From Marsupella aquatica (Eukaryota > Plantae > Marchantiophyta), in NCBI GenBank assembly GCA_973895155.1, contig OZ316891.1, positions 9,053,875-9,117,874 of the forward strand: a DNA stretch of 64,000 nucleotides. Reading direction: 5' to 3'. This document shows, in pieces, positions 3,756-56,046 of this stretch. Position 1 is the first letter of the stretch. Every line of letters starts with the position of its first letter. The notes beneath the pieces were generated by a model. The model ran no database searches. It was not told the DNA's origin and worked only from the letters and a program-made list of their open reading frames with translations. A program made the position numbers and the translations under genes.

Positions 3756-4150
3756 ACGTCTGCATGCACTCGTTCTAAGAATTTAGGTACGTATTTCATG
3801 GATAGTATGTCTTAGAAATAGAAGGTCTAAGTATTAGCTTTCCTTGAGAACATGCCATGCATGACTGATTTTGATTCGTTGGACGTGCATTTTGTGGTAT
3901 TCTATGGGTTACTCTCCTCATCTTTTGAAACATAGTCATGCTAGGGTACGTGTCCAGGCCTAGTATGCCAAAGGTCATATAGTGACATTTCATGTGTAGT
4001 GGAATGAAAAACATTCAATTGTGTGACATAGAAACCCAACGAATACGCAAAAAATATTTCTTTTATTTTCATTCCATCAAAAGTATTCTGTAAAATATGA
4101 ATTACTTCGTGGTTCTTGTCTATACTGGTGTGAATATGGTATTCGTTATC

Positions 4151-7100
4151 TGTGGACCGGCTCAATATAGGGTATGTAAGGAACTTGTCAATTTTTTTGT
4201 TGTTTGTACAAGGAATAGTAAGAAAGTTGTTGTAGTGTTAGCAAAGTACTTAGGGTTTGCAACCCTAAGTCACTAGGGATGGCTAGTAGGAAATCATGGA
4301 AGGGAGAAAATGTGTTGTTCTAAGCAAATGTAAAGGGATAAGTAATATGATTTTGGTAGGCAGCAAATGTTCCACCCTTAGTTAGGATAGGCGACTAAGT
4401 TGGGACCGGAAAATGACCCGACACCTGACATCTTATTTTTGGCTGATATTTCTCCCATGGGTGCTGGGAGGTCCCTAGGGAACCCTGAAAAAGTATGAAG
4501 TCAAGTGGGGTCTCAACCTAGGAGTTGTGAGTATTTTTACAGAAATTAAAATAACCAACTAGCGGGCCCCGGAGAAAATAGCCAAGGGGTAAATTTTGTG
4601 GGTTAGAGGTTAGAATTAAGTTTAGTATAGACCATAATATACTTGGATTGTCTCAGAAATAATTTTTCACCTTTTGTTACTTTTTGGGAACACCTCAAAG
4701 ATTGGGAATAGTAATGCGCTTTAATAGATATGGTCAAACTTATGTATTTTTAGAAAAGTCGTTATGGAGTGTTTAGAGAGTTTGATAAATTTAGGAGTGA
4801 GTCCTATGTGCAAGGATTCCAGAAATGTGCTCATAAGTACGTTTGGACATTTGAGTGAATTTTGGCATGGCCTTCAAGAGGGGCCAGTATAACTGTTTCT
4901 CCTGAGAGGAAAACGAAATTTTTCTGAGTATCAAAACGCGTCGACGCGGCTGCGACCAGACTAGCACGAGGTAAGGCAAGCATGACATGGGCAGGAATGC
5001 ACGAGGTGGGCTAATTGAAGGGCTGGTGCTCATCAAAATAGGCCACTCTTGATCTGAATAGGCAGGCGCGGGATTGAATTGAGCTAGCTGCTGCTGAGAA
5101 GGACTTGACCTAGCTGCTACTGTGAAATTGAATTGTGAGCTATGGCTGCTGATTGGAATAGGGAGGCTGGCTTTGAATTGGGAAGGTTGCTTGCTGCTAT
5201 GGTAGCGGCACAATAGATTAGAGGTGCTGCTATTAATCAGGCATGAGATGCTCACGAGAATTGGCTGGCTGCTACCTTGATGCTGCTGAATTGATGGATG
5301 CTGCTGCTAGCTGCGAAATTGCAGAGGTGGGCAACTACGAAATTGAGAAGAGAGACCTGCTTGGCTAAGTGATTGGAATAGAGCTAGTTTTTGAGAAGGA
5401 ATCAAGCTATGGCTGTTGCTGCTGTGCTTCGAATCAGTTGCTATGCTTCGAATCAGCTGCTATGCTTCGAATCTGCTGTTGTGCTGCAAGCTGCGAATTG
5501 GTGGGCTATGGCTGCTGCAAAATTCTGCTGCGATTTTGAATCACTTGCAAGGCTGGATGGCTATGGAGGTGGACTGAGAAGGGTGCTGTAGACCTGGCTG
5601 AGCTATCAATTGACCTGCTGTCATTCGATCCAATAGAGAATGCTGCCGTTTCAGATTGAATTCAAGAGAGAGGAAAATGCTGCAAAAATTGGTGTCCTTA
5701 TCAATCTTCTTCATAAGAAATGTGAGTATAATGAGAGTACTCTCCCCTCATGACACGTGGAATCCCCATAAGGGGCGTGTAAGGTTCAAGTGTAATCGGG
5801 TCACCGCTTACACCCGCTTTACACCAAAAACAGGTCTTGGGAGAATGGGCATAACTTTGGCTAGGGGTATCCATTGGGGCCCAAATTTTTTTGTGCTGAG
5901 TAAGGGGAAGGTAAGGCACCCCTTGGTGAAGGTGGAAACCCAGAAAAATAATCACTCAAATATATTTTTAGCGGAGGCCACGAGGGGGTCCCCATAGCTT
6001 GCAAACGAGAGTCGGCATGGGGGAAGTAAGACCAGGTTTTTAGGCCGACACTTCTTGCACCCGTGTCACCCAAGTTAGGATACATGGAGAAGAGAGTACC
6101 TCAGGGTAAAGGTGCAAGGCCGTTAGGGTAAGGAAAGTAAGTTGATAGGTCGGGGTAGTAAGTAAGAACTAGTAAATAAAGAGCCAACTTTGACATGACA
6201 CAACTTGAGACTCACTCACTCTTTTTGCAAGCTTTCAAGTGGGTTGGGAAGCTGGTGAGGAGGACCATAAGTGAGAACAGGTTTGGAGATCAAAGCATGC
6301 AACTCATGTGTGGCATATTCCAGGGCTTGGAAGGAGTCAAGCAATAGGTTGTAGAGTGAGCTACAAACTATAGAGTTGGACTTTGTGTGTTAGGAGGACT
6401 TGGGGGAGGAGTAGTTGGACCCCAGGTCAAGCTTGGTGTGGTGTGGAAGGAGAATAGAATATAAGGAGAAAGTTTTCCTTTGTTAGGGACCGGGAGTCTC
6501 ATCTCTTAAGTGGAATCTCTACCTTGCCAAGGTAGGGCTAAGCTTGAGAAGGGAGAGGTGGTCCATGCTTAGTGTGGAGAATGTGTAGTGAACTTTTATT
6601 GTAAAGGTGATGCAATAAAAGGAGACTTGCCAATCTTCATTATGACCATTAAGTGTGAGTGCATTTGAAGCATATGAGAGCAAGAGAAGAGTCCATGCTA
6701 TGATATAATCTTGGTCTAAGCTTGAAGGGGATGTGCTAGTACAAAACCAAGGCCAAGAGGCAAGGTTAAAGTAGAGCACTACTTTGAGACTTAGAGAGGA
6801 TTATAGCTTGAGGGTGGAAAGTATTTTGTTTGGTGTGTGGTGTTAACAAGAAGTAAGAACAAGAGGAAGAGTCCTTAGATAGAGGAGCCTTCTCTAGAGC
6901 TCAAAGGGGATGTGTGGACCCAAACCAAGGCCAGGGGCCAAGGTTGAGGGGTAACACTACTTTGAGGGTCTTGAGGAGACTTAAGCTTGAAGAGGAAAGT
7001 ACTTTGGTTCTTGGGTGTTTGTGTGAGACTCTTCTCTAAGGTGACAGCTTGGAGCAGAGATCCTCCTTGCTGATCCTTGGAGTAGAGGAGAGGAGAAGGG

Positions 7101-7298
7101 TGTGAGTACAAAAGTAGTCAAGGGGACTACCTCTCTAGAAGTGGAGAGTTGAAACTACTTATGTATGGAGTGATTAGTCATTGTAGGCACATTTCAGAAG
7201 TTTTGTCAATCCTTTGTGACCCTGGTATGATATGGAGCAGGTATTAGGTAGTCTTTTGGGGAGAAAAGCCGCTTAACCTCCTTGACAAGTGTTTGACA
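4151..7298. mobile_element. Solo LTR, 3148 bp
   Basis: TGT...ACA termini. 5-bp TSD TTATC at 4146-4150 and 7299-7303. Splits the copia motif KDIRDN/xYHIHTS. No terminal direct repeats and no convincing ORF. Confidence 0.85.
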
Positions 7299-8426
7299 TT
7301 ATCTCTAATGTCCTTGAAACTAATTAAGTCCCTCGTGGCGTAAGGCGCATAGATAACAAATTTAATGTGAATGGTGGTGCCCTGAGGTAACATGATGGTA
7401 GCGGGTCCGTTAACTTCTTCTATCTGATTACTCCCCATAATAGTGGTCATATTCCTATGGCCCGAGGGAGTAATGGTTGTGAAATAATCCCTATACTTGA
7501 GTATAGTGAGGGACGTGCCGCTATCTACTATACAGGTCCTGATGTCATCCAAGGGTAAGGATTCCTGTTGCTGTGCAATCATGTGTGTCTCAAGAATGGC
7601 CTCATCGTGAGTGTAGTTTTCTAGATGCTAATCCTGCTCTAGAAAGGTGCCATGTGCTTCCTGAGTTCTGCTATTTCTATTTTGCTGATATAGTGCTACT
7701 AGGTGTGCAGGTATGCAGCATAGCTTCTATGGATGCCCCTTGGTGCCGCATTGAAAACATTCCATAGGTCTTCCTGCATACTATCGGGAAGAGCTATCCC
7801 GTTGGGCTGGTCGTCCAGGTCTTCCCGTTCCTCCATGGGTGTACGTGAAGCTTGATCTTCCGCGTTCGCGATTTCCTCCATTTCCGCTGCCTCTGCCTCT
7901 CCCACTAAAGTAGGTAGATCTTCCGCCTCCTCTAAAGGGTGGTCGTCCTCGGCCATTGCGGCTGAAGCCGCCTTGTTGTCCTCCTCTGCTACTCAAAGGC
8001 AGGCCAAAGTTTGTCTCGGTAGTTGGAGGTGATGGTAGGGCTCTAGGGGGTTGCATCTTTGAGTTCTTCAATAACAAGTCCTGATGTCTCTCAGCTAGTA
8101 ACATGTGGGCTATGAGTTCGGAATACTTGGTGAACTTCGTATTCTTGTACTATGACGACAGTATCATGTTACTCAAGTGAAACGTAGATAGTGTCTTCTC
8201 TATCTGCTCTTCGTCATTCACTGGTTGGCCGCGTAGGGCCAACTGTGACATGATCCAAAAGAGTTTACTATTGTAGTTCACTATGGAGGTGTGGTCCTGG
8301 ACTCAAAGGTTAACCCAATCATGGCGGGCTTTGAGAAGGTGGATAGTCTTGGTATGGTCAATTCTATCCTTTAGTTGTTCCCAAAGGTTTTTAGGGTTTC
8401 TTTGTTTAGGTATTGCAGTTTTAGGG

Positions 8427-10562
8427 TGTGACACGGGCAACGTGTCACTTAACTAAACGCAGGTTCTAGATTAGGACTTATACGGTCATTAGGACCGTCG
8501 CCGTAGCGTAGAATAACACGAATAGCCGTCTTTGCCATTATGGATAGATTAGGAGTAGGTTAGTTGACCGAATGATTACGAATTAAGGAAGAGGATTATT
8601 ACGCTCGACCGAGGTATGGTGGCAGCGGTGGAGTAAAAATCCGTTAGAAGAATCACGCTTGGACCGAGACACCGACTTCAGCTCATTATCAACAACCAAA
8701 ATGGCCTTGCCCGCTCACGCTCGAGCTCACCCTGGCACCTCCATAAGAGCGGAGTCGATAAGCACTGCGGGCCATTTGCTCATTTCTACCTTTTGGACTT
8801 CGCAGATGCTGCCATTCACTCTCGCCTTTTTCTCAAATCAAACTGACCTTTACGAGGAGATTATCGAGGGATAAGAGCGGATTGTGGTGAGATTTTTTCA
8901 GGACGAGTAAGGCCTCCACCAGCAAGCGGACCGGCCGGGCGGGAACGCAGACTCGATGAACCAGACTACCAAGGTGAGTATGACCCTTACAACCTTGGGA
9001 TTTTGGACCTGTTTGGCGAGGTAGGTGCTAAGTTCTTCGAGACTTATTGGTACTCTTGCCCTGAGAAAGCCGCTTACAAACAAAGATACGCAAAGTTGGT
9101 GGCCAAGGTAGCACAGGTTAACTGTGAGAGGACAGCCATCACCAGGGATTCCAATTACAACGAGCTACGGGATTACATCACCGAGCTATATATCAGTGAG
9201 GAAGGGTTCAGATCGGTTGCAGAGGCAATTCTTGAAGTTCTCGCAAAGTTCTTTAGGCTGAGGGGTAGCCAGAGACTGACTCCAGCGGAGTTTGACAAGA
9301 TTCCGGGATACATTGACCAATAGATTGCAGCCGAGAAGCGTGAAGAAGACATCAACAGACAACGGGAAGCGGCGCGTAACCTTACGTTCCTTGGGGAAAG
9401 CTGCAACGCCTTCAACTGGGATATGGCTACCCCGACACCACCCCCAGCCCCTCAGCCAATGACCACCGGCGTACCACCAAACCGGTCCCAAGTCCGTCAT
9501 GTAAACAACACCAAGTGTTCCTCGGGTTCCGAGCAAGTTAGTCTGCAACTTGAGCAACGTTTGCGGAAGTGGGCAAGGACGACGCCGGCCCCCGAACCGA
9601 CAAGGCAAACCAACGCCGCCCCTGCACTTGCCCCGGCGAACCCCCCGACCAACCAGACCCAACGACCCACGAGCAGAGGCCGATGAGGCGGCAAACGAGG
9701 CAGAGGAGGCGGTACGGGATAACAAGGCCTTGTAGGACCGCATTACTCGATCTGCCCACCTCTGATCAAGGCGGCTCGAGGTCTCGCCCCGACAGGGGGA
9801 CAAACCCTGGTCCGACCACAACACGCACGTAAGGGGTGGTTAGCAAAGGGTGGGAGCAGGCGCCGCGCGAGGCAGTTGAGTCAGCAACGTCTTTTTGATT
9901 AGGCTTAACGACATAATAGTTGTCATTAGGTGCCGATTAGCGGCCCAGTAGGAAGAATTAGGACAGGATCAGTTAGGATCAGCCGACGTAGGATAGAGTC
10001 CATCAACAGACTAGATTTTGGTCAGTAGACTTAGCTGCTGCCACCCCAGTCAGCGCCCTTGCCGCCGACGGCCAACCGATCAGAGGAGTGCGGCCGGTTA
10101 GTCACAAGGTAGTTAGTCAATAGGCATTACCCCGGAACGTAGTATCTCGTGCATTACCCCAGACTAATGGTCCAGACAAAGCAATCCCTACCATTAGTCC
10201 GGGGTAATGCACACAGTACGGCTCTGTTTGCCATTTCAAGGGACGTACCGGGTGCGGACTAATGGTAGGGATTGCCACCCATTGCATGTCACAAGGTTCT
10301 GTCACGTCGATGGCTTGAAAGCCCCAAACCGGGAGTTAGTCCGAGTCACTAACTGTGGGAATATTCCAGCGGTGGAAAACAAATATACCTATGACCAGTA
10401 CGAGTTGCGTAAGTATTATACCGGTAAGTATATTGACTTAGCCCGACTTAGGGCTAATCGGGGCCACTACACACCTCCTTGCCCGAACCCTCACCCCTAC
10501 TGGTGGTCGAGGTTGCCCCATGGAACTAAACTGGATTTAAGGCCCGGGTTAGGGGCGCTACA
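8427..10562 (+). mobile_element. Solo LTR-like insert, 2136 bp, containing a decayed ORF
   Basis: TGTGACAC...GGGGCGCTACA termini. TSD TAGGG at 8422-8426 and 10563-10567. Splits the copia gag. Confidence 0.85.
8701..9733 (+). pseudogene. Disrupted ORF of unknown function inside the solo LTR
   Basis: Successive plus-strand segments (8701-8874, 9003-9323 with read-through, 9423-9733) have protein-like composition and a Pro/Ala/Glu-rich tail. They are separated by isolated stops and frameshifts. Confidence 0.55.
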
Positions 10563-13056
10563 TAGGGGTTCTACTAAGTGGTGTCGTATGAACACCAAAG
10601 CTTTCGCTTTCTGCTAGGTTGTAGTGCCTTGATCAGTGATGATCGTTTCGTGGATATCTTTGGCTATAAGGTTAGCTTTTAGGTCCAGGGATCATGATAG
10701 GTAATTCTCCCCCTCAATGGTTAAGGGGAGGAAGTTTAATTTTTCTATCGATGCAATAGTTTGGGTTTTAGGGTTGGGTCTAGGGTTAGGTTTAGGTCTG
10801 GTGTTAGGTTTAGGTTTAATTTTGGTGATAATGTATCCCAAAATATAAGGTAGTTTTGTTTAATGCCAGTGAGGTGTTGAGTTTTGTGTGCCTCGTTTAG
10901 TAATGGTTATAGGTTCTGTGCGCTTTCTGGAAATCAAATGTATTTGAATTTTGCCTTTTCATGTTTGGTTTTAGGGTTTCTCTTATTAATATAAGGTTCC
11001 TTCTTGTTAACCCTAAGTGTGGTTTAGGTTTAGGTTTCTGTTTAGGTTTAGTGCCGCATGCAAGGTAAATGTGAAGGAGGAGAAATTTTGTTTTAGGGTT
11101 TTCAGTTTTGCGTGTGTATATGGTTAATTCGGAAGTTTCTTTGACGGGTTTTGTGCTTATAGAAGGTTTGCACTTATCGGTTGGTGTCGATGTTTTCTCA
11201 AGGATTTGGCCTTGATTGTTGCTTTTCTTTATTCTCCTATCTTCAAATGTGGCCATTCGTCCTTCGCTTGTGCTGCGATCTCAGTCTTCAATAAGCTTTT
11301 CCACCTCCATGCTGTCTCAATCGTCTTTCATCAAAAGCCTCTTTTCTTTGTTTCTTACTTCGTCTCTTGTGTGGTCTCCACTGTTGTATTTATCTTTGCT
11401 ACCACCACGGCCTCCTGCTTTGGTCTCAAACTTATGTGCTTTCAATCCGTTTTGCTGCAGTGGTGTTCTATCGCTTCAGGGCCTTTAGGTTAAATCTTCC
11501 TTCTTCTGGTCACTTTGCTGATGTTCTTCATTGTCGCCCTGCTTCTCTTCAGAACTCGTGGCCCACTTCATCGATCCTCTAAAGTGCGTTGGATTCTGGC
11601 TGTCACGATCTCAATTTGTGATTAGCTTTTTCGCCTCCTTGCTGCCCCGATCTTCTGTTGCTTATGAGTGCTTTGATTCAATTGTCCTTATGAGGTTGCT
11701 CGATTTTTTCATGACTTTGAGACGGGCCTTAATGTGATTACTGCTTCTGGTTTTGTTTTTCCTGGTTTGCTATAGTGCAGTAGTGTACACTGAGGAAGTT
11801 GTAGCCCTACGCGATGTCCATGTAAGTTCGAGCGATCTCAAATGTCTGGTGTAATCTCTTACGGTCGATGCCTCTCTCTCCTTCTATTGGTCATCTGTGG
11901 ATTTGCATTTCTTGCCTTCCATTTTTGATTTCTTAATTGCCTTCTTGTCACTTGCCTCTCCAACGGTTAATACGTGCAAACCGCACTTTTCTTCGCTTAA
12001 ACCGTTGGTATCGTATTACGGGGTCGTGGAGGGACGCTATTTGGATTCTTTTCACACCAGGATGAGTATTTTGGTTTCCGCTCCCGGAAATGTAGGTTTT
12101 GATCAAGTCTACCGACTACCCTCACCCCACAGCTTTTGATCAAGTCCTGCCGACTACCCCACTACACCTTCACTCGGAGTCACCCAAAGAGTGCTGTCAC
12201 CACCCCTACTCACAAGGCCGACTCAAACCAAGCAAGTTTCTTCAAATCATAGAACGGGAGAACACAATTCGGAAAGCGAAAAAGGGAGAAGGAACACACA
12301 ACAAAAGCCCATCAAGTCAAATGTACAGATCCATATCTCTTGGGAAAAACGATACACATTGCATGAGTAACCCGGCCTCCTGCCGTCTACTCAACTCCTG
12401 CCTCTCCGGACAATGAGTATGGCTCCCCCTCACTACTCTGAACACGCTTTCAAACTCCTCAGGCTCCACTCTATCCCTCCTTGCTAACTTCACACTGAGT
12501 CCCCCTAACTACTTCGGGGCTATCCCCCTAAATACTGAAAAATCACACCAAAGCACCCCTCACAGGGTCACAACGGTGGCGGCTACCCTAGCGGCGCCGC
12601 TAAAACCTTGCACTAAGAGAAATCCTTAAACTGAAGAGGAGCATGCGGCACACACATGCTGCTAAAACCCTAAACCCAAAACAAGGGGGCCGACGGTGCC
12701 TTCGACGGCGCCCCAACAGTACACGTGAACCCTGAAAGTGAGAGGCACCCCAAAATGGCCGAAACTAGGTGCCCTTCCAAGTGCACACCTGAGCTCACCC
12801 CTGGATAGCTCTTCTTTTCCTGCTTCCGAATCACTAAGTCGCTCCCTCAACGGACTTCAGACGCCTGAGTTATGGCCGTTTCCGTACCGCAAAAACATAA
12901 GTTCTCCAGGCCATAACTTGCTCATCCTGGCTCCGTTTGAGGAGCGCCGCCTCTTGTTGGAATCAGCTCCGCGAGCTCATCCCAACAAGCCCATGAGTGA
13001 CCCCCCACTAAAATGTTGGAAATCTGGAGGCCGTACACCCACGTCCGTACGCCTAT

Positions 13057-14913
13057 CTAATCCTCCTCTTCTTCTTCGCTCTCGGTGCCCGGACTTGTGC
13101 CCCGTGAGTGGTCCTCCTCCTCATCACTCACGGGAGTGAGTGCCACCGTACTTTTCTTCTTCTTCGACGGAGTACTCTTAGTGCTGCTGCTCCCGCGCTT
13201 CCTCAAAGCAGCCAAGGCCTGCCACGCCTTGATGTACCCCTCACCAATTGTGTCCTTCCAGAGGGTAGCCTCTTCTCCGGACCGCAACTCCAACGGTAGA
13301 ACTTGCCCCGTGGCCATGGGAGTCCCGGGGGTGACAGACCTGGGTGGCATCCCCGTACTGACCTGAGCCTCCCGTAACGATTTCCGTACCTCCCGGAGCT
13401 TCTTCTCCAAGCTCTTACTCTTCTCCTGACTCTTCTTGGCTCCATCCAACAAGGGTCCATACTTCCCACTAACCTCCTTCACCACCATCTCGATAGCTTG
13501 GGAGATCACATCCGGGGAAAGTGTGGAGCCAGGTGTGCCGGGACTCTTCCGTTTCCCTAGACTCAGGGCCTCACTTCTCTTCGCTCGTGTCTCAAAGGCT
13601 GCCACCTGACTCCGTAGTGCTCCCACCTGGTTCCTCCACTCCATCACTTCTCCAGAATTTTGCTTCTCTTTGGCCAATGCTTGCCTCAACGCTCCTACTT
13701 CTTCTGCTTCCTTGGCCTTGGTGGACAAAGCTCCCTTCAAGTTGGTGATCTCTACGTGAGCTGCATTGATGTGCCTGACCTTCTCATGAATGGTCTGCTC
13801 CTTGGTCTTGATCACCTCCTTCAGTGACAGGATGCTCTGCTCTAACGTCTCTACTTTGACTGTGGCGTGCTTGAGAGACTCCCTCAATGCGTGGACTAGC
13901 TTGAGTCCCTCGTGGACTCCCTCTCTGAAATCCCGTAGCTCTGCCAAGTAAACATCCGGAATGTTGTATTCCAGAGGCTGTTTCGGATCTCCCACGAGTG
14001 ATTCAAGCCACTCCAATGTGCAATCATCCTCCTGGTTCTCTTCTTCTCTATTATCCTCCCCACCAGCAGACAATGATTCCTCCGTGAGCTTCCCTAAAAC
14101 GGTAGTGGCAATACTCCGGATCTCCGTGGTGAGAGATGATCCCGTGTCTTCATGCCCCGGAGAACCAATCAACCCTTCTGCCCTGGCCAATACAAATGAC
14201 CCCATCAAATGTACAGCCCCACCTGGTTTCACACTCCCGGGCTCAGCGGCCAATAGCTTCTTCAATCCGTAGCACCACCATCCGTACACATGGGCTGGGT
14301 AGTTCTTGATGTCCATAGCTACCACGAAATGCTCCTCATTCAGCACTCCGGATTGCACGTTGCCAAGAACCCGTTGATGCACCTTGGCCAGGAAGCCCTT
14401 ATACTCAACATCCTTGACAGCAGAAAGAGGGATGGCGGTGGTGGAGGTAGGATTGGTCACCCAAGTGGCCACCATTTTCAACGTGAGTTCTCCCCTGATA
14501 TTCCGAGGTGTGAATGAGAATTTCTGATTCTCAAGAAACAATAGCTTAGCCAACTCCACATGGGGCACTACACGTTTGAGACATTCAAAGTAGATTCCCT
14601 CCGTTCGGAACTCCATCCCGGCCTCAATGTCCCAGCTCTTCCCTGAAGGGATGGTAATCTCCACCTTCATGAATTCTGTAAGCCCGGTGGCTTGGAAAAT
14701 GTTCCGACAATCCTCCATCACCTTGGTGGAGGTCTTGGGATAAATTCGACGAAAAATCTTCCTACCCACCGGTGAGGAACCCGCTGCCAATCCCGTGCTC
14801 ATCATAACTTCTCTCTCTTCCCTTTCCCGTGTAATCCGAGTCTCCACGTAGTCACGGTAAGCAGCCTTGTATCTCCGAATGCGTGACGCACTAAACTCTG
14901 GTTGATCTAGCAT
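13057..14913 (-). CDS. LTR-encoded 618-aa protein: N-terminal globular domain resembling gypsy accessory proteins, central coiled coil, basic NLS-like and acidic C-terminus
   Basis: Uninterrupted ATG-to-stop ORF. Heptad-rich segment (LKHATVKVETLEQSILSLKEVIK...), PSKKKKS, terminal ESEEEEED. Weak motif similarity to the ORF at 54609-55520. Confidence 0.75.
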   Translation of the reverse strand: MLDQPEFSASRIRRYKAAYRDYVETRITREREEREVMMSTGLAAGSSPVGRKIFRRIYPKTSTKVMEDCRNIFQATGLTEFMKVEITIPSGKSWDIEAGMEFRTEGIYFECLKRVVPHVELAKLLFLENQKFSFTPRNIRGELTLKMVATWVTNPTSTTAIPLSAVKDVEYKGFLAKVHQRVLGNVQSGVLNEEHFVVAMDIKNYPAHVYGWWCYGLKKLLAAEPGSVKPGGAVHLMGSFVLARAEGLIGSPGHEDTGSSLTTEIRSIATTVLGKLTEESLSAGGEDNREEENQEDDCTLEWLESLVGDPKQPLEYNIPDVYLAELRDFREGVHEGLKLVHALRESLKHATVKVETLEQSILSLKEVIKTKEQTIHEKVRHINAAHVEITNLKGALSTKAKEAEEVGALRQALAKEKQNSGEVMEWRNQVGALRSQVAAFETRAKRSEALSLGKRKSPGTPGSTLSPDVISQAIEMVVKEVSGKYGPLLDGAKKSQEKSKSLEKKLREVRKSLREAQVSTGMPPRSVTPGTPMATGQVLPLELRSGEEATLWKDTIGEGYIKAWQALAALRKRGSSSTKSTPSKKKKSTVALTPVSDEEEDHSRGTSPGTESEEEEED

Positions 14914-15338
14914 CCATGCATCCCGAAATCAATTTCTCAATCACCAATCCCGTCACCCGTGGCAATGTCAATTCCCTGGCCCGAAACAGCCCCCGTAGCC
15001 CGATCACTTAAATTCTCTCAATTTCCCGTCACTACTCCGTGCGGCCGCCACTAATGCCTGGAAGAATGACGCCAGCAAGCCCCACTAATCCACCATGAAA
15101 GAGAGAGCTTCAAAAATAATTAGAATCTGGAGAGAGCTTCCGGCAAGAGAGAGAAGAACCCCGTTTTTGCTTTCGGCAATGAGAGGGTCGTGCAAAAGGA
15201 AGAGGGAAAGAAAAAGGAAGGAAAAAAAAATAGAACCGAAAAAACTCCTGGCGCCTTCGCCATGCGCCCCGGCCCATTTCTCGGGCCTTACCCTTGCGTC
15301 CTCCTGCGCGCGGCCCTATGCAGGGCGCGCGGCCATTC

Positions 15339-15570
15339 CTCCCGGCTCGCGGGAGGCCCTTCAACTCCCCCCCGCTCGCGTGATCCTCCCAGCTCGAGGG
15401 AGGCCCTTTAACTCCCCCCCGCTCGCGTGATCCTCCCAGCTCGCGGGAGGCCCTTTAACTCCCCCCCGCTCGCGTGATCCTCCCAGCTCGCGGGAGGCCC
15501 TTTAACTCCCCCCCGCTCGCGTGATCCTCCCAGCTCGCGGGAGGCCCTTTAACTCCCCCCCCCCCGCTCG
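15339..15570. repeat. GC-rich tandem repeat, ~47-bp unit, ~5 copies
   Basis: Unit CTCCCAGCTCGCGGGAGGCCCTTTAACTCCCCCCCGCTCGCGTGATC starting near 15339, 15386, 15433, 15480 and 15527. Confidence 0.95.
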
Positions 15571-16589
15571 CTTGCGCTCCTTCAGCTCGCGGAGCCTCAT
15601 TAATTGCCCGGGCACGCAGCCCTATGGGCTCGCGAGGCAGCCCCTCTTTCTCTCGGACGGCCACTAATGGGACTCGCCCTCCTGAGGAGGGATTTATTTA
15701 AAAAAAAACCCCCCCCTCTCCTGACTTTGCAATGGGGGTCTCAACAATAGCTCTTGAAGCAAAACGGTAAGTCCTATGGGGCTGGTCCTGGCTAGTTTCA
15801 AGGTCCCAAAATATTTGCCCACTTAGGTCGCCGCAAATCTTAGAACTATTATGAGAGAAAGAATATAAAGTCACCTGGGGCATCATCAACCTATAATGAC
15901 GGAATTAACTAAAAATTAAAAAATGGCTTATTTACATTGACTATTAACAAGGTATCGGCCTTTGCAACCAGTTATGTGTGACTTCCCGTGACGGGGTACC
16001 CGTCACACTTCTCCTTCAGTCTCATTCTTCAATCTCGTCTTCGGCTTCGCGTATCAATTCTCCATCAATTTCCACAACGGTTCCTGCCTCCTCACTCAAT
16101 CTGCGATTGACTGTTTTTCTTCCATGCTGTCTCGATCGTCTTATTCCAGTTTTGTTGTTGTCCTATTGGGAATTCCACTATTGTCCCTTATGGATTGAGA
16201 CAGTGGCTGCCTTTCTTAGCCTATCTCGCCTTCTCGTATCTCCTTGTGAAGATTGATTCTGTCCTTGAGTGAATTCTTCCCAAAAATTTACTCAAGATCC
16301 TAATTTTGGTGCTTTCTCAATGTTTCGTCAGGATTTCAGATTCGATACGCCATAGCCTCTTGCTCCAAGCTGGTAGAAGTGCTGATAACGTGTTATGTAT
16401 AAACTTCAACCGCATCCCGAACTTCTCCCTGGCAAATGAGGGTACAAAGTAGGTGCCTAACTATGGTTAGGTTAGGTTAGGATTTAACTAGGGTATCTTA
16501 ACAAAAATGTAATTTTATAATATGAATTTAAAGATATAAATAAATAAATAATATAAAAACTTTTAAAAGTAATCAAAATACAAAGAATA

Positions 16590-19500
16590 TGTCAGAGTCT
16601 AAAATGAGAATCAATTTAGTATAGGTAAGTATGTGAGTACATATAGTCTGGTTGGGTGACCGGTTGGTCCGGTCGTCCGGTCATAGGTAGAGTCTAACAC
16701 TCCCCTTTGGATATATAGTGACAACTATATAGACAACATACACTATACCTATTATATCATGTTCATAGGAAATACATGATATAAGTACAAGCGAGGTAGA
16801 CTGCCTCGTTAAAAAACCTTTATCAACTCTAGCTTAGTAAAAACTCTATCAGTGTAGCAGAGAAAAAATATGAGTGCTAAAGGAAAAAGAGTGCAGCCTA
16901 ACAGTCCTCATCGTAATAAATGTCAATGTTAAGTAAAGTTAGATGTTATGGTAAATCTAGCTTTAATATCTGTTTCAATAGTAGGTCGTCAGCATCATGT
17001 CATCAGCATCATGTCGCCAACATCATCAAGCATCATGTGGAGCAGTAGCCTCCACGGTCATCATGCGTCGCACACTCCGCAGTCCAATCGCCTGGCAGTG
17101 TCGGTGGTGAACTGATGGCGATAGTGATTTGGTGAAGAGATCCGCACAGTTGTCTACACTTGAAATCTGCAAAATGTTGATCTCTTTTCCATGTAACTCG
17201 TGGGTGTAGAAAAACTTTGGAGCTATATGTTTCACGCGATCGCCTTTGATGAATCCTTTTGTGATCTACTGTATACATGCTGTGTTATCCTCAAAAATGT
17301 TAGTAGGTTTCATTAGTGGTGGTAGGCCGCATTTGGTGTTGATGTGGTTTATAAAGGATCGTAACCAAACGGCTTCACGACTAGCCTCATGTAGAGCTAA
17401 GATTTATGAGTGATTCGATGAGGTTGCTGTTAGGGTCTGTTTCACGCTTTTCCAAGAAAAAGCGGTACCCCCTATGGTAAAAACATATCCGGTTTGGGAT
17501 TTTGTGGTATCAGTGTCGAAGAGATATCCGGCATCCGCATATCCTATGAGCTCGTGGTTTGCACCGAATGGGTAAAATAACCCGGTATTGGTGGTTTCAC
17601 ATAGGTATCTAAATACGTGCTTAACTCCATTCCAGTGTCTGGCTGTGGGAGTTGCACTATGTAGCTAGTAAGTTAACTGCAAATGCAATGTCTGGTCGTG
17701 TCTGATTTGCTAGGTACATCAATCCTCCTATCGCAGAAAGATACGGAGTTTGTGGTCCTAATATTGGTTCATGTTCTTTGCGCTTGCAAAAAACATCAGT
17801 ATTGTTTTCTAATGAACGTACTACCATTGGTGATGTCAATGGATGTGCTAGGTTCATATTGAACTGTTTTAGGATCTTTTCGGTTTGTGTTGTTTGATGG
17901 AGCATCATTCCAGTAGGTAAGATCTTCAGTTGTAAGCCTAAGCAAAAGTTTGTATGTCCAAGGTCTTTCATCTCAAATGTTGATTTAAGACGAGTGATAG
18001 TATCTTCGGTAATTTGGGTTGTCCCAAATATGTTTAAGTCATCAACATAGATAGAAACGATGACATATTCGTCATCCACATGTTTAATAAATAAACATGG
18101 TGTAATGGCATCATGGGAAAAACCCATGGCAATCATTTCATCGGTAAATCTTTGATACCATACTCTGCCACTTTGTTTCAGGCCATATAATGCCTTCAAC
18201 ATGCGGATAGCTAGTCCGCGGCGAGTATTCCGTATGGTTGACACAGCGGTGTCGTTATTATGAGTTACATGTGTAGATGACACATGAGGTATAACTTGAG
18301 ATAATTGTTTTATAATCTTATGTAAATATGGGATATGCGATTTAGCGCCTTGAGCTAAAGCTCGGCGACGTTGCTCCAACTCGGGAGGTGATCGCATGTA
18401 TAGACAAGTGTCTAAAGTTCCATATAGATATGCGGTCGCAACATCTAGTTGTCGCATTTGTAGTTTATGGAAAATGGCAAATCCGATAAGGTATAGGAAT
18501 GTTGTGCTATCCATAACTGGTGAGTAAGTTTCATCGTAATGAATTCCCGGTTGTTGGATAAATCCTTTCCCTACCAGACGTGCTTTGTAGCGTACAACTT
18601 GGTCTTTATCATTTCTTCTGCGGACGAATGTCCACTTGTAGCCAATGAGATGTACATCTTGGGGTGTTGGCTCAACTGGGCCAAAAGTGTGTCTGCTTAG
18701 TAGGGAATCTAATTCTCCGTTTATAGCTTTTTGCCATTCAGGCCAATCTGGTCTGTTTTGGCATTCTAAGATGGATATTGGTTTGGGTGTTTCGTCTGTG
18801 ATATGTGTTGCCACCATTAATGCAAAAGCATCATCTATTGAAGTAGTATTTATATCCCACATCGTATTGGTGTGTGCGTAGTGGATAGAAATCTCCTCAT
18901 GAGTTGTGGATTCGTTATGATCGGCATTAGGTGAAGGTGGTATAGATGAACCATGCCTTCTTGGTTGTTTATCCTTTGATCCCAATAGTCTGCCACGTTT
19001 GGCACGAGGTTGGGATGTACTTGCTGGCTCACTTGATAATTTGATGTGAGCGGATGCTCTCGCAGCTGGAATATGTGAGCGGGTAACTTGTGATGTATCG
19101 ACGAAAGCGTCAGGAAGTTCTTCCACAATCTTGTGGAGTTGCAAAATTTGTTGAACTTCTTTCTCCCCTTGATTGGTTCTAAGGTCTTGCCAAAATGACG
19201 AGTGTCTTTCCCACTCCAAAGGTGGTTGTGGGTGTTCAGGGGTTATTAATGGTGGGTAAATGTATTCATCAAAGTGGCAATCTAGAAATCTGGCTTTAAA
19301 AACGTCACCAGTTGTAGGCTCCATATATCGGATTATGGATGGTGAGTCGAATCCAATGTATATTCCTAACTGTCGTTGGGGTCCCATCTTGGTTTGTTTG
19401 GGTGGAGTAATGGGGACCATTACTTGACATCCAAATGAACGAAGATGTGATAGGTAAGGTTTAATACCATTAGCAATTTGGTATGGGCTATAGGTATTAA

Positions 19501-22500
19501 AAGCCGATGGGCGGTATTGGATTAATGCATTAGCCTGTAATATGGCGTGTCCCCATGCTGAGACGGGGAGTTTCGACTGCATTAGTAGTGGGCGTGCAAT
19601 TAACTGGAGGCGTTTAATGACCGCTTCAGCTAATCCATTCTGAAAATGTACGTGAGGTACAGGATATTGTACGTTAATGCCAAGTGATGTGCAAAAGTCA
19701 TCAAATGTTTTGGATGTGAATTCCCTTGCATTGTCCACCCTTAGTGTCTTAATGGGGTGGTCTAGGAATTGTGCTTTCACGCGCAGGATTTGCGCCAAAA
19801 TGCGAGGCATAACCATGTTCCTCGTTGAAAGCAGTGTCACATTTGACCATTTAGTTGATGCGTCGATTAATACCATAAAGTAGCGGAAAGGTCCGCTCGG
19901 AGGGTTAATTGGCCCGCAAACATCTACATGGATGATTTCCAAGAATTGGGGTATTTTAGTTGGCAATTTTGATGCCGTGGGCCTTGTTATTAATTTTCCG
20001 CGTGAGCATGCAGTGCATGGGGTGCTCGCTGGAATGTGGCGTGTATTGATTGGAATGCCTCTTGAATTCTTAATGATTTTGGTTAGCATTGATTGGCCGG
20101 GGTGGCCGGGGTGGCCGAGGTGTGCATGCCAAAGCGCATGCAATTCGCTTGTGTTGGCATTGTTATGCAGGCATTCAATATGAGTTACATAAAACCCGCA
20201 AGGATACAAGAAAATGGTTTCTTTAATGATTTTCCCCGTAGGGGTATTTTCAACCAAGTGGATGACTTCTTGGTCTCTTGTATCGCCTATTTGGACGTGT
20301 AGTCCATTTTCTCGTATATCTCTAAAACTGAGGAGATTACGAGTTGCATTCAGGGCGAAAATAGCAGATTCTATGTGTATTTTGGTCCCCTGCGGGAGTC
20401 TAATAGAAGCTGGGCTGAAGCCCTCTTCTATTTGGCTAGGACCATTGATAGTGGTGAGAGACCTACATGAGGGTGTAATCTTGTGGAAAAGGTGTCTATC
20501 CCTGAGGATAGTATGCGTGGTCGCACTGTCGATAATACATGTGCTTGGACTATTTAAATCTGGTGTAGTGGAGCTACTTGCCACTAAGTGTGCCTCGGGT
20601 TGGGCGGGTAGGTCTGAAAAGTCTTGGAATGGGTCACTCGACTCCATAAACGCCCCGTGGGTTTCACAGGGTGGTGCCCTTGATGTTTGTCCATCCTGGA
20701 GGGACCGTTGATATAATTCTCTAAGGTGTTGCGGGATTCTACAATTTCTCGCTAGGTGGTTTATCATGCCACATTCATGGCATTTCGGTCGTTCCCTTTG
20801 TTGTTAGGATTGTGACCAATCATTTCTGCGGTTGTTGATGTATGTTCTTCCACTGCCGCATCCTCCGCGTCCGCCACGTCCTCCTCGTCCTTCTCGTCCA
20901 CCACGTCCTCCACGTCCTCTAAAGGTCCGTTGGGAGTTATATTGTGGACGTTGGTTATAGAAACTCCCCCTGTTATGGGTGTTTCTTTGGTTGCCATTCT
21001 TAGTGCGCTTAATGCCTTGCCTCGATGTGGAGGGTTCAACATTTTCTATGTTATGGGTTTCATTCTGTTGTCCTGAGGGCAGTGTGCCCGCAGGTCATTT
21101 CCTAGAGTTTACTAAAAGAAGTTCTTGGTTTCTTTCGGTGACTAGGAGGTGGGCTATGAGCTCGGAGTATTGCCCGAACTTCATGTTTCGATACTATGTT
21201 GATAGCAACACATTCGATGAATGAAATATCGACAAGGTCTTCTCTAGCAGATCCTTGTCTGTGACCGGCTCGCCACATAGTGCGAGGGTTGAGGTTATTC
21301 TAAAGAGTTCGCTATTGTAGGTTGAAATAGAGGTAAAGTCTTGGACTCGTAGGTTTAGCCAGTCTTGCCTGGCTTTAGGTAGTTCAACCAGTTTTTGGTG
21401 GTCGAATCGGGTTTGGAGCGCTGTCCATAGTTCACGAGGGGTTGAGAGGTGCATGTATTGTCTTTGCAAGAATCTATGGATATGGCGTCTAAGGAATACG
21501 AGAGCCTTAGATTCGTTGGCTTTAGTTAACGGGTCTGGTTGGGGTTCGCCAACTAGTATGGGTTGAGCCATCCCTATAGCTGGGAGTAGGGTTAGCAAGG
21601 TTAGGTTCTCTCTGAGGTTCATTGACCATTCCAGGTAGTTTCTACCATCGATTTCTAGGGCTAGAAAAGTTAGTTTCTCTAGGTTGGTCATCCGGGTGGT
21701 GGCTTGATTCCTTTTAATGATAATGGTGCTTATTTACTAGTAAGTATAGTAAGAAACGACAAAGCACATTTCTGCGGTATGCAAAGTGGGGCTGGGTGGA
21801 GAGAGCATGCAAATTTGGAATTCGATTTTAGGGTTTGCACTTAGGATTTAGGTTTTCTTTGGTATTTGGTTAACTGCAAAGTTTCCTTTGTATTTGTTCT
21901 TTCCTTTGTTAAACTGTGCAGTAATGAAGTTTTGCAGTTTGTGCAGTTATTGGTGGTTATTTACTCGTGCCCTGGTTAAGTGCACATGCGGCTTTGTAAG
22001 GTGAATTTTCTTTGTTACGAAATGCAGTTATGGAGGTTTTGCGATTATGTGCGCTTATTTGGTTAAGTGCAACTTTTCCTTTGTAATTGAAATCTCTTTG
22101 ACGGATTTTGCAGTTAAGGAGGGTTATGCACTTAGCAGCGGTTTTCGATGTTTTTTTGACGTTTTGCAGTCTCAATGTGGTGGGATTTGATTGCAGTTGC
22201 GCCCCTTGTGCGCTGCTTTCTTTGGCTGCGCCTTGTAATGCGCCTCTCCGATTCTTTCTCTCCTGATTCTGCTGTGCGATTTGCTTCCCTGTAGTAGATG
22301 CTGCTCTTTCTTCAAGGGCGAGGTCAACAGAACATCAAAGCTCTATACTCTCTGCTGTGCTCTCTGTTAGTGCCTCCCAATGCTTCTGCTGCTTCAATTC
22401 TCTCTTCCTTATTCAGTTTTGCGTCATGTCTAATTTTGTCCTTGTTGCCCATGACATCTCGCTGTCTAAATGCTCGGATGGTTCTCTCAAGGCGCGCGTA

Positions 22501-25272: not shown

Positions 25273-26154
25273 TTAATCATCGAGGCGTGTTTCCTCACCC
25301 GTGCTTCCATGCTTCCCATGCTTCATTTTCGCCAGTTCGACCTGCGTTTGCATAAAAAGTTGCATTCTTTGCAGCTCGAGGTCTTTCGTAAATTCCATCC
25401 GTTGTTTCTCGAGCTCCATCAGTTGGTGCTGTTTAGCGCTTTCAATTCTCTCGTATACTTCGCCGAATTTTATAATAGCCCTAGCTAAGTCTTTGAACGG
25501 ACCTTCCTGTAATTTACGCTTCACGATAGGCTTTCCTTCCGTCCCAGGGGTGGTGGCATGCGGACAACTGTCGGTCATATCCGGGCTCTCCTTGGATTTT
25601 GTGTTCGTGGACGCATTATTGAAAGTCTTCGGCTCACCGTTTACGTCCTCTACTCTATCCCTCTTGCGTTTCTGAGTTTTCGCAGACTTCTTGTGTTTTC
25701 TTGAGGTGCCAATCAACTCATCTAGCTTCTCAAAGAAAACCCACTTAGTGCCCGCGCCGCTGGTCGCCACCTTGCTCTTTTCCAACTTGTACTTCTTCTT
25801 CAATGTGTCCAACCTGTTCTTGCATTGCACATCAGTTTTGAGCACCTTACCGTCCTCCCGACTATTAACAGCTTCCGCCACATCCTTCCAGTGCTTTTGT
25901 TTCAGATTGCCACGGTTAAGTTCGATGTAACGGTCGCCCCAGGCCTCGATGAGCGTAAAGGTGGCGGTCTCGCTCCAGCAGTCCTCCCGGACGTGCTTCT
26001 CGTTCCCATCGCCAATGAGCTTGGTCGACCTCGAGGTCGGAGTAGAATGGATCCCCGGAAGCGAGAGCGTCAGAGTGTTGTGATGTTGCGACACATCGGC
26101 CGAGCCGTGACCTCCGCCACCATGGTGCGCTGGAACACGAATCTCGGCTTCCAT
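25273..26154 (-). CDS. Trihelix transcription factor, SIP1/ASIL-like (Myb/SANT-like DNA-binding domain plus C-terminal coiled coil)
   Basis: REDCWSETATFTLIEAWGDRY...HWKDVA...KTDVQCKNRLDTLKKKYK...WVFFEKLD and LARAIIKFGEVYERIESAKQHQLMELEKQRMEF. A possible splice donor (G|GTGAGG) near 25298 means the true C-terminus may lie in a further small exon. Confidence 0.93.
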   Translation of the reverse strand: MEAEIRVPAHHGGGGHGSADVSQHHNTLTLSLPGIHSTPTSRSTKLIGDGNEKHVREDCWSETATFTLIEAWGDRYIELNRGNLKQKHWKDVAEAVNSREDGKVLKTDVQCKNRLDTLKKKYKLEKSKVATSGAGTKWVFFEKLDELIGTSRKHKKSAKTQKRKRDRVEDVNGEPKTFNNASTNTKSKESPDMTDSCPHATTPGTEGKPIVKRKLQEGPFKDLARAIIKFGEVYERIESAKQHQLMELEKQRMEFTKDLELQRMQLFMQTQVELAKMKHGKHGSTGEETRLDD

Positions 26155-32099: not shown

Positions 32100-32745
32100 A
32101 CTAAATAATTAATCTCCTTAGTACTTGATGAAATATGTCAATGATAGATTCATTGGAAAGCTAGAAAAATTTAGAAACTCATGAATCACCTTTTTAGTAC
32201 TTGATAATATCTCCCAATGTTACACTCCATGAAAAGCTAGAGAAATTTAAAACTCATTATCTTCTTAGTACTAGACAAAATCTTAGAATGTTAAGTTCAT
32301 TGGAAAGCTAGAGAAATTCAAAAACTCATAACCTCCTAGGTACTTGCCAAAATCTATCAATGTTAGGTTCATTGAAAAACTAGAAAAACTAGAAACTCAT
32401 GATCTCTTTAGAACTTGACAAAAACTCTCAATGTCACACATTAGAAAGCTAGAGAGATTCGTGATCTACTTAGTACTTGACAAAATCTAACATGAAATTT
32501 GTCAATGTCAAAGTCAATGTAACTGAGAAGCTAGAAGAATTCATGAACTTACAATCTTTGTAGGTCTTGACAAAATCTTTGGATGTCACACTCATTGGAA
32601 ACTCATTTGGTACTTGATTAATCTGCCATTGTGAGATTTATTGGAATCCTAGAAAAAATTGGTAAACTCATGATCTACTTGGTACTTGACTAAATCTACC
32701 AATGTGATACTCATTAAAAACCAAGAGAAATTCAAAAAATTATGA
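32100..32745. repeat. Degenerate AT-rich minisatellite, ~60-bp unit, ~10 copies
   Basis: Recurring TAGTACTTGACAAAATC...AATG...TCATTGGAAAGCTAGA.AAATT...AAACTCAT at ~60-bp spacing. Confidence 0.85.
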
Positions 32746-33164
32746 TATCCTTTCTTGCTCATCTCTCAGTTAATCTGTGGACCCCCATGTTCATCCAAGG
32801 AATGTTCAGCAAGGCGATAACCAATGCTTTTGATTCTCCAAGTGGTTTGGTGTGTGCTCGGACTACAAAAGAGAACACTCGAAAGATAGAGGAGATCAAT
32901 CTTTTTGAGATGATCTCTCTGGTTCATGAAACGAAAGGTTGAATGTGGAGGAATTGAGTTTTTTTATGGTTTTCGCTTACACATTGGAGAAATCGTGTTT
33001 CTACCATTCTTGATTGATAATTTGTGAATTAGTTTGTGGACCCCACCTATTAATAGACACTATCAGAAGGTGATACATATCAGACATGCTCAAGAGTGGA
33101 GAAAGAAAACTCAGTGCATAAGAGAATAACATAACAGGTATTTATCGTGTTCACGAGCACAAAC

Positions 33165-45400: not shown

Positions 45401-45699
45401 GTCAACATGATATCATATCTATGTAAATGCTTTGATACCATATCAACATGATATCAACTCAATATAACATCATGTAAGCAATGATTGTATTAGCATTGTG
45501 TTGAACATAAATATAATCAAGTGTACAAAACAAACACTAAGGTTTGTGTATGTAAAGAAGTGAGGTCCTGAAATGACACATCTAAGAGACACTGTATATG
45601 AGGTCTACACACCCTTTGCATAACCAATTAATGAGGTGTATGGTCATGGATCATGACCAAGTAGTGCTATCTCATTAGATTGTCATCATTGGCGCATAT

Positions 45700-53929: not shown

Positions 53930-53947
53930 CTCCCCGACAGTGGCGCC
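53930..53947 (-). other. Primer-binding site, tRNA-Asp type
   Basis: TGGCGCCACTGTCGGGGA matches the recalled Athila-type PBS TGGCGCCGTTGCCGGGGA at 15/18 positions and is preceded by a T-run and a CA LTR end. Confidence 0.8.
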
Positions 53948-53955
53948 AAAAAGCG

Positions 53956-56046
53956 TGTGGTAAAGTGGTTAGATTGTTAAATAACACTTTAACTTCTAAA
54001 GACCTGAATTTTTTCCTTTAAGAATTAATGAAAAGCGAATTGATACTGAAAAGAACAAATAGGATGTTAATTGGGCATGACCTTGCCAAGGAGTTCTCTC
54101 TCCATAGGATTGATGATAATCAATGAAGAAAAGCTAACAAAGAAACAAAATGACATGAAAAAGACTAGTGAGAATATCCTTTCAATTGGTCTGTTGCACA
54201 AGGTAATGTAATTTGACGACCTCCAGAAGATCAACAGGACCTTGGCTTTTTAAGAATCAGAATACATTAGAGCTTAAACCATAGCCAAATTTCAGAATGG
54301 ATAACCACATTAAATAACAATTGCAATGGAGAACAATAGCTATGAATCCAAGAATCCTTTCAGGTCAACAAAGTAGGACGATACTGAAATTCTTGATTTA
54401 ATAACTTCTCAACACTACAATCACTAAACTGCCGAGTAGTTTCTCAATTTGATTTTGATTGATGGTCATGGAAATTGAACATTCAATTGTACATACCGCA
54501 ACAATGGTACTTGAACCTTCCCAACCAGTTCCTCTAATTGCTTTGTCTTTCCGGTTGCACTCTCCACAAAAATCCGGACATGCTCCAACTTTGCTGATGC
54601 CATCCACTTCAACTTGATGTCACTCCTGGAAGACTTCCTCTGCTTTCCAGTCTCCGGAGAGCAGGTTCCAGATCTTCAATAGGATCCGGTTCCGGACTCT
54701 GAACTAATCTCTTCCGTGTCCTAGGGGGTCGGACTTCAACAATTGGTTCTTCTTCTGACTCAGTCCCCTTAGATGGCTGTCGATCCGGATCTCCAAGTTG
54801 AGCCAACATGGCTTGGTTCTTGTATTCCTCTGCCTCTTCATCTGTCAGAACCCGGTGCATGGAGTACAGGTTTGCTAGGTAGCACGAAAGCGAGGTGGGA
54901 GTCTTCAAGTGAAGATTCTGGACTTCTTTAGCAATGACTTCCTCCAACACCTTCGCCCAAGAAATCTTCTTCTCACCCACATAGGAAGCAGCAATGGTGT
55001 TCCCAATCCGGATTGTAACACGGTGAGGTTTGGCAGGGGACAGAATGGGTAACAAGAAGGACAAGACATCAAAGAACTCCTCATCCAAGCATTGAGACAT
55101 CTTCCAGCCATCCTTTGGATCTACTTCGCCATCAAAATAGTTGTCAGCGATGTTTTCTTTCGAGGTCAGAAAGCTCTCTCCTTTCAATGGCACATCCAGT
55201 AATGATGAAATGACAGCCGCAGTCCACTTTTTTGGATTTCCTCTGATAGAATCCGGAAAATCCGAAGCAAGGGTGGCACAATTCCGGACCTCCTTCACGA
55301 ACACTGCACTCTGATATCCCCATGGTAACTCCATCAACTTTGCGCAGCCCATGGCCTCAAGGTTCTTCTGTAAATGGCCCTTCCTTTCCGGATCCGTAGG
55401 AATCTCCGGACGCAGCAGCTTCTCGTTAGCAATGATTGTCCACTCCTTAGTCATCCGCTTTGGTAGCGTCCGTATTCTGGATTTGTCCAGGGCAAAATCC
55501 AGATCCTTTCTCTTCACCATGATGAACGAGGGAAAGAAAAAAAATGAATGTCGAACCCTTTCACAAAACTCCAGAAATCTCAAATGATCTGGAATTTGGA
55601 ATCAAAGTGTCACTGCCCCACTCAATCGAATGATCACCCACTTCCCCTGTAACCAACTTCCTTACAACTAATGCCTCAAATTGGCAGCCTCGTCCGGCTC
55701 TATTCTCTCTTGTGACTTCTCGCAAAAGATTTCCGTAGCAATTCGATGGTGTGAGGAATGCTCGGTCTGGCTTGGTCATAAGAACTCGGTCGCCAACTTC
55801 CGGTCTCCGGTCGGATGTCAGACTTATGGTTTTAATATTCATTCTCCCATGCCCTCTCTCATGGTTCAATAGTGCCGCTACTTTAAAGTTCCAAAAGGGT
55901 GCTATCCAGAGATTTTCGGATTTCATACTGCAATTTAGTTTTAATGGTCCTTTTTGGTCTTAGTATACTTCGTTAACCACTAAAAGATGAAAATTTTCAA
56001 AAAAATTTGACTTTTTAATTTCCTTAGTTATAACCATGGCATCACA
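53956..56046 (-). repeat. 5' LTR (~2.1 kb) of the gypsy element, containing an ORF
   Basis: Ends in CA a few bases before the PBS. The other boundary (TGTGATGCC at 56046) is inferred from the motif only; there is no partner LTR to confirm it. Confidence 0.6.
54609..55520 (-). CDS. ~303-aa gypsy accessory-type protein located upstream of the PBS
   Basis: Open from ATG 55520 (MVKRKDL...). Motifs LEAMGCAKLMELPW, IRGNPKKWT, DGWKMSQC, ISWAKVL and an acidic/basic tail. Confidence 0.7.
   Translation of the reverse strand: MVKRKDLDFALDKSRIRTLPKRMTKEWTIIANEKLLRPEIPTDPERKGHLQKNLEAMGCAKLMELPWGYQSAVFVKEVRNCATLASDFPDSIRGNPKKWTAAVISSLLDVPLKGESFLTSKENIADNYFDGEVDPKDGWKMSQCLDEEFFDVLSFLLPILSPAKPHRVTIRIGNTIAASYVGEKKISWAKVLEEVIAKEVQNLHLKTPTSLSCYLANLYSMHRVLTDEEAEEYKNQAMLAQLGDPDRQPSKGTESEEEPIVEVRPPRTRKRLVQSPEPDPIEDLEPALRRLESRGSLPGVTSS

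Follow-up and report, generated by a model that had tools for sequence, protein, structure and literature searches.

A likely solo long terminal repeat carrying an intact coiled-coil protein gene in the liverwort Marsupella aquatica

Layout of the locus

The stretch of DNA analysed here, the window, comprises 64,000 nt of contig OZ316891.1 of the liverwort Marsupella aquatica (assembly GCA_973895155.1), and the subject of this report is a 4062-bp unit at positions 11946-16007 of it, the focal unit, which starts with TGTCAC and ends with CCGTCACA, giving it TG..CA termini, and which has CTTCT on both flanks, that is a 5-bp target-site duplication (TSD). The unit carries an open reading frame (ORF) of 618 codons, the product of which is here called P0001. 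It is likely to be a solo long terminal repeat (LTR) of a young Ty3/gypsy family with an accessory gene within the LTR, and the ORF itself probably lies inside the LTR of a gag-pol element.

In the direction of the ORF the unit opens with a short terminal hairpin, followed by a GC-rich tandem array that may represent a promoter/enhancer region and by a stretch reaching to the ATG that is predicted to serve as promoter and leader. Past the stop codon comes non-coding DNA, in which a T/GT-rich stretch at 700-800 nt from the end of the ORF may constitute the 3' end region. P0001 in turn consists of a conserved N-terminal domain, a predicted coiled coil with a second, short one near residues 480-510, a bipartite motif resembling a nuclear localisation signal (NLS), and an acidic tail (Table 1). 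Terminal direct repeats were not found in the unit by blastn at word size 7, where the only matches were the tandem array itself and a 37-bp inverted piece, and local scores of one end against the other (14-22) are inside the range of shuffled sequences (maxima 25-29). Likewise, no Rfam family matched the unit and Pfam revealed no gag or pol domain in its protein.

A sequence-only reading of the same DNA had described the TG..CA ends, the CTTCT duplication, the open frame and the lack of both terminal direct repeats and gag/pol, and these points are borne out by sequence, blastn and Pfam, as are the tandem-repeat block upstream of the ORF and the NLS-like motif and acidic tail of the protein. 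Its further statement that the ORFs of neighbouring transposable elements are all disrupted is however overstated, since a copia pol frame of 1036 codons with integrase and reverse transcriptase matches is open at 17657-20767.

Table 1. Positions of the features of the focal unit and of the other LTR-like units in the window (aa, amino acid residues of P0001)
Feature	Position	Strand	Basis or remark
Left target-site duplication CTTCT	11941..11945	+	Other copies lack the same 5 bp (loose ends at 11946, agreement 0.53)
TG..CA unit, likely solo LTR	11946..16007	- (that of its ORF)	Ends, TSD, depth step
Right target-site duplication CTTCT	16008..16012	+	Sequence
Terminal hairpin, 8-bp stem, about -9 kcal/mol	15988..16006	.	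At the end of the focal unit upstream of the ORF
GC-rich tandem array (47-bp unit, 4.8 copies with 97% matches)	15337..15561	.	Upstream of the ORF
Array-to-ATG region, GC-rich with pyrimidine-rich tracts	14914..15336	-	Sequence
Open ORF P0001, 618 codons (1857 bp)	13057..14913	-	ORF list, shuffles
Conserved N-terminal domain, aa 57-241	14191..14745	-	28% identity to Calypogeia fissa CAM6083533.1
Predicted coiled coil, about aa 326-445	13579..13938	-	Weak matches to many coiled-coil Pfam families, heptad score
Bipartite NLS-like motif, aa 571-587	13153..13203	-	Pattern match
Acidic tail, aa 597-618	13060..13125	-	Protein sequence
Non-coding 1.1 kb past the stop, with T/GT-rich stretch	11946..13056	-	Additional relatives in X2 and X3 share its last 200 bp
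Second TG..CA unit, 2136 bp, TSD TAGGG, terminal hairpin	8427..10562	+	Decayed sense ORF at about 8702-9686
Apparent 2.1-kb 5' LTR of Ty3-type element, with broken accessory-like ORF P0002 (55520-54609)	53956..56046	-	5' boundary by eye
Primer-binding-site-like motif, TGGCGCC type	53931..53948	-	7 nt past the end of that LTR (CCACA), then gag remains

Boundaries and copies of the focal unit

The window is contained, wholly or partly, in ten public sequencing runs, of which six have half of its words or more, and four of the 14 runs listed were compared with positions 11500-15190; three of the runs are referred to as X1, X2 and X3, and X1 may be the source sample. None of the ten is recorded as RNA, which says nothing about expression. 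The left boundary is set independently of the termini by a step in read depth and by loose ends of read contigs exactly at 11946. In X1, four contigs leave the focal unit at precisely this position and run into unrelated DNA with an agreement of 0.53, which by hand calculation is the value for four unrelated flanks. In X2, a contig of 989 letters tracks the flank up to 11945 and then continues for 632 letters unlike the focal unit (in record coordinates), and this contig is probably the empty insertion site. The right-hand 800 bp of the unit are without read coverage, and since the reads stop short of it the right end is placed by the TSD, by a drop in GC content from 0.51 to 0.43 and by a host repeat present on both sides. 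In addition, ACA followed by CTTCT occurs twice in the 64 kb, one of the occurrences being this end.

The contig spanning the left junction has a depth of 20.5 in X1 and of 22.1 in X2, and contigs identical to the focal unit have depths of 1572-1664 in X1 (over 218-483 letters) and of 6012-6330 in X2, hence multiples of 77-81 and 272-286, which are rough and do not equal copy numbers. Depth is uniformly high over the interior of the unit, and between 12123 and 15190 the pieces listed show no difference from it. The data support the focal unit as a real, high-copy and recently mobile insertion with integrase-type ends.

The host DNA that received the insertion (10600-11945 and 16008-16500) is an older, decayed and strand-biased repeat with a 48-bp motif found on both sides of the unit. 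Its left part (10600-11945) has no Pfam match, and telomere-like TTTAGG runs are found at 10767-10827, to the left of the focal unit.

The encoded protein and its relatives

When the bases of the focal unit were shuffled 300 times, stop-free frames reached 292 codons at most, as against 618 in the real ORF, and P0001 is almost certainly the product of a real gene that has been under selection. No homologue was found with the whole of P0001 among 7994 scored candidates. A search with the N-terminal domain gave six relatives, namely five unnamed fragments at 40-59% identity and the Calypogeia fissa protein CAM6083533.1 at about 28-30%, and a profile search among 7992 candidates gave two matches, adding Calypogeia CAM6092599.1. 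Both of these liverwort proteins have the N-terminal domain, a low-complexity linker and a coiled coil, a layout as in P0001, and conservation at the protein level amounts to 27-59% identity across families and to Calypogeia. Relatives were found neither in JGI metagenomes nor in IMG/VR or prokaryote genomes. Each of the four Calypogeia homologues, the C. fissa proteins CAM6083533.1, CAM6092599.1, CAM6099565.1 and CAM6093915.1, is a single accession, and the twin accessions expected of a gene present once per LTR are not seen, a fact that is neutral for the LTR reading.

As for the family of the protein, Athila ORF1 is the second-ranked atlas match of residues 37-330 of P0001 at 0.76, and a Calypogeia homologue scores 0.85 with PMD, seven of its ten best named matches being in one family or clan, and 0.77 with Transposase_28, all of these being below the bar of 0.9. 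Furthermore, the Calypogeia homologue matches a Transposase_32 model with a template modelling score of 0.67 over 196 of 206 residues, which is below the bar for naming. These sub-threshold leads are mutually consistent in that they all point to the PMD/Transposase_28/Athila-ORF1/Transposase_32 group of gypsy accessory proteins, and according to PMC6317226 the PMD/Transposase_28/Athila-type set is that of the extra-ORF domains found most often in Ogre, Retand and Athila. We therefore consider it likely that the N-terminal domain belongs to the PMD/Athila-ORF1 group. In Pfam, P0001 has weak coiled-coil matches only. Structure models made here were too poor for use (predicted local distance difference test scores of 33.5 and 41.2), and Foldseek found nothing in the PDB with these models at E ≤ 0.001.

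P0001 has no transmembrane segment, the maximum 19-residue hydropathy being 1.09, and on these grounds an Env-like plant ORF was rejected.

Other LTR-like units and elements in the window

A truncated Ty3-type element without pol is found at 49880-56046 on the reverse strand. Its primer-binding-site-like motif, which we take to be of the tRNA-Asp/Athila kind, is followed by gag remains in the form of zinc-knuckle matches and a weak Ty3_capsid match (E 1.6e-4, under the cut-off). The ORF P0002 lies upstream of this motif, and the simplest reading is that it would be located inside a 2.1-kb 5' LTR: there is no purine tract between the ORF and the primer site, there is no pol in the 1.5 kb upstream of the ORF, and a TGTGAT located at 56046 agrees with the end of the LTR in five of six letters. 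The frame of P0002 is broken near 54610, the protein is 45-51% identical to two Calypogeia proteins, and its Calypogeia relative P0011 has an N-terminal domain, a coiled coil and an acidic tail. A liverwort host is thus likely from the homologues of P0001 and P0002 too. Beside this element, a Myb/SANT-like ORF (57287-57652, reverse strand) adjoins a decayed stretch within 56047-57700 that by eye resembles a Harbinger nuclease.

The second TG..CA unit, at 8427-10562, has at its start a hairpin similar to that of the focal unit, from which its decayed ORF reads away. This ORF has no Pfam match and no match among the 12 proteins compared, and the unit is likely to be a further solo LTR with an ORF, from a family unrelated to the focal one. 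The 64 kb hence hold three unrelated ORF-bearing LTR-like units.

Of the remaining elements, copia copies are found at 17657-21691 (reverse strand), with related pieces near 3800-4150, 7244-8150 and 44766-49509, and from the start of gag they presumably belong to Bianca. An intact gene for a 293-aa trihelix protein (Myb_DNA-bind_4), probably a host transcription factor, is located at 25273-26154 on the reverse strand, a decayed 71-bp tandem array at 32103-32751, and at 29-763 and 30241-30576 there are fragments that we take to resemble the C-terminal zinc-finger region of ORF2 of long interspersed nuclear elements.

Solo LTR or another kind of element

Four of five solo-LTR features are found in the focal unit, namely the TG..CA termini, a TSD that differs between copies, the lack of both gag/pol and an inner LTR pair, and a boundary shared between copies, in this case the left one. 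Several observations however weigh against a solo LTR with an accessory gene. The combination of TG..CA ends and a 5-bp TSD is weak when taken alone, the window holding 126 chance-level pairs, and the boundaries therefore needed the independent support described above. No copy of the focal family was found next to gag-pol, a polypurine tract or a primer-binding site, the 24 of 513 loose ends that were listed include no junction with a primer site, and a TATA consensus was not found between the array and the ATG. In addition, the terminal 200 bp are deeper than the interior by about 2 times in X2 and 3-4 times in X3, though not in X1, and further relatives sharing these 200 bp diverge after 12147 in X1 and X2, as seen from loose ends at that position; the excess fits a shorter shared module, but it also fits related families with a common LTR end. 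With regard to the protein family, no atlas score reaches its bar, nor does the structure match, and a Pfam accessory-family match is absent for P0001, P0003 and P0006 at E ≤ 1 and for P0010 at E ≤ 0.5. As for the P0002 element, its boundary at 56046 was set by eye, there being four candidate TGT starts within 1.8 kb, no homology between the element and the focal unit was detected (hhalign probability 1.2%, no blastn match), and its Harbinger-like neighbour is without a Pfam nuclease match. The missing primer-site junction on the other hand says little, since a contig across such a junction shares just about 30 letters with the repeat and may be left unplaced.

The missing junction has also to be counted in favour of a self-mobile unit, the alternative of the sequence-only reading, that is a non-autonomous, single-LTR-like cassette copied and integrated by partner enzymes without ever flanking an internal region, and so do the about 80-280 near-identical copies (a rough figure from the depth ratio), the fact that, of the three TG..CA units with an ORF in the window, two show a TSD but lack an internal region, and the terminal hairpin that both TSD-bearing units carry upstream of the ORF. 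Such a unit is nevertheless quite improbable, since neither of its inner ends is near a primer site or purine tract that could prime reverse transcription, since a primer site and gag come after the third ORF-bearing unit, and since long LTRs are reported to be more prone to solo formation (PMC7251063); the weakness of the missing junction as evidence applies here as well. The wider notion of a class of single-LTR gene cassettes, which would spread without flanking gag-pol, would draw on the enzymes of a partner and provide it in trans with a PMD-like chromatin protein sustaining the partnership, and would be represented in liverwort genomes by several unrelated families, seems to us just as improbable.

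Large retrotransposon derivatives (LARD) and terminal-repeat retrotransposons in miniature (TRIM) are bounded by a pair of terminal direct repeats that enclose a primer site and a purine tract, and a derivative of this type was rejected, as neither the repeats nor the primer site or purine tract was found in the focal unit. Integrase-type DNA transposons such as Ginger/TDD have long terminal inverted repeats and encode a DDE transposase, and they were likewise rejected, since the focal unit has no long inverted repeat at its ends (five of eight terminal letters match and inverted end scores are at shuffle level) and no DDE domain. Helitrons and Replitrons, as we take them to be defined, are in poor agreement with TG..CA ends and a 5-bp repeat that is not common to the copies. 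It is furthermore unlikely that the unit arose by deletion or recombination and was amplified in a form in which an internal accessory region, a Retand-like antisense ORF with its array, lies between very short or unlike termini and the ORF is outside the true LTR. An ORF with a tandem array is indeed known content of the region from pol to the 3' LTR of Retand (PMC11963269), and the terminal 200 bp common to additional relatives would agree with such an origin. The ends however lack the direct repeat needed by a LARD/TRIM-type derivative, and the uniform depth and identity of the interior in the pieces listed mark it as the standard form of the family and not a one-off.

That the ORF is a passenger without function, its frame being open merely through the youth of the insertion, is very improbable. 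Being identical to the main haplotype, the copy would have had no time for decay, but the protein is conserved across families and to Calypogeia, the frame by far exceeds the shuffle maximum, and variants show a synonymous excess. The variants considered are the 40 best supported of 519, together with 12 of 56 indels. Twelve of the 40 are in the ORF, and nine of these are synonymous as compared with 27% expected (nominal p 8e-4, rough dN/dS, the nonsynonymous to synonymous rate ratio, 0.12). The nominal p is too strong, given the use of the best-supported subset and the location of ten of the 12 in one 61-bp stretch, and the synonymous excess is suggestive only. Of the 12 listed indels, 11 form about four clusters beyond the ORF, and the sole one within it is of 3 nt. 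Conversely, five of 14 listed deletions lie in the ORF and three of these break the frame, all at single-copy depth, which weighs against an intact gene in every copy and means that some copies are dead.

Proposed mechanism and significance

If the focal unit is a solo LTR with an accessory gene, a full element with two 4-kb LTRs would have inserted at 11946 and recombination between its LTRs would have removed gag-pol. The array and the GC-rich region would drive a transcript across the ORF that would terminate within that LTR's own T/GT-rich stretch, and with promoter and 3' end both inside the LTR, a complete gene would be present in each LTR, be it solo or one of a pair. P0001, with its PMD/Transposase_32-like N-terminal domain, coiled coil, NLS and acidic tail, is predicted to oligomerise and to enter the nucleus, where it may help its family in trans, most likely by keeping the promoter active or by guiding insertion. 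The odds of a nuclear accessory role appear to us to be even, and an anti-silencing role in particular must be regarded as rather doubtful. A nuclear, trans-acting role is predicted because of the link between PMD and silencing, the predicted DNA binding of TRP28 (PMC11963269) and the nuclear localisation of GENE23 of maize Grande (PMC7264820).

Plant LTRs are treated as non-coding, and the process by which solo LTRs arise is seen as the way for the host to disarm retrotransposons. If an accessory gene resides in the LTR, every element has two copies of it and every solo LTR keeps one, and if this is true intact gene copies, numbering in the tens to hundreds, would survive the loss of their elements and could be active in trans. 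A young, intact cassette with a predicted promoter of its own, in a liverwort-like host, makes it easy to test what the PMD/Transposase_28-type proteins of gypsy elements do. Annotation pipelines would mask such genes or call them host genes, and the unnamed Calypogeia proteins may be cases in point.

Comparison with known systems

The sequence-only reading took it as the norm that extra ORFs lie between the LTRs, and this is in agreement with the literature (PMC7264820, PMC6317226 and PMC11963269). Within the limited coverage of our literature search we found no report of an ORF inside the LTR of a plant retrotransposon, although the supplements of PMC6317226 may list cases. The closest relatives in terms of protein appear to be the extra ORFs of the OTA clade of gypsy elements, i.e. 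PMD in Ogre, Transposase_28 in Retand and Athila ORF1 (same three sources). They resemble P0001 in likely belonging to the same domain group, as judged from the atlas leads, in having coiled-coil regions and in having tandem arrays nearby, and the LTRs of Ogre, Retand and Athila are described as reaching about 5 kb and as containing such arrays (PMC6317226). The extra ORFs are however found in the internal region between the LTRs, whereas P0001 apparently lies inside one and does not reach the Pfam cut-offs.

By description, the rice elements Retrosat2, RIRE3 and RIRE8 (Tekay) are likewise similar to the focal unit, with LTRs of more than 3 kb, an extra ORF0 and termini starting with TGTCAC, but ORF0 of Retrosat2 is placed upstream of gag-pol, is treated apart from the LTR and is confined to grasses (PMC3485330). 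With respect to function, the Arabidopsis PMD proteins MAIN and MAIL1 act in nuclear silencing pathways, and the authors speculate that transposons use the domain against silencing (PMC5418596). These are however host genes, and their link to P0001 is a sub-threshold lead by way of a homologue of 28% identity.

The closest parallel in layout is the sag gene of mouse mammary tumour virus, a protein gene in the U3 region of a betaretroviral LTR, which has a promoter within the LTR and is kept mostly in solo LTRs (PMC4667437). Sag is an immune-stimulating membrane protein of a vertebrate retrovirus, whereas the focal unit is a 4-kb unit of a plant, its product is soluble and has a coiled coil and an NLS, and homology is not claimed; the likeness is one of layout, that of a gene within an LTR which survives in solo LTRs.

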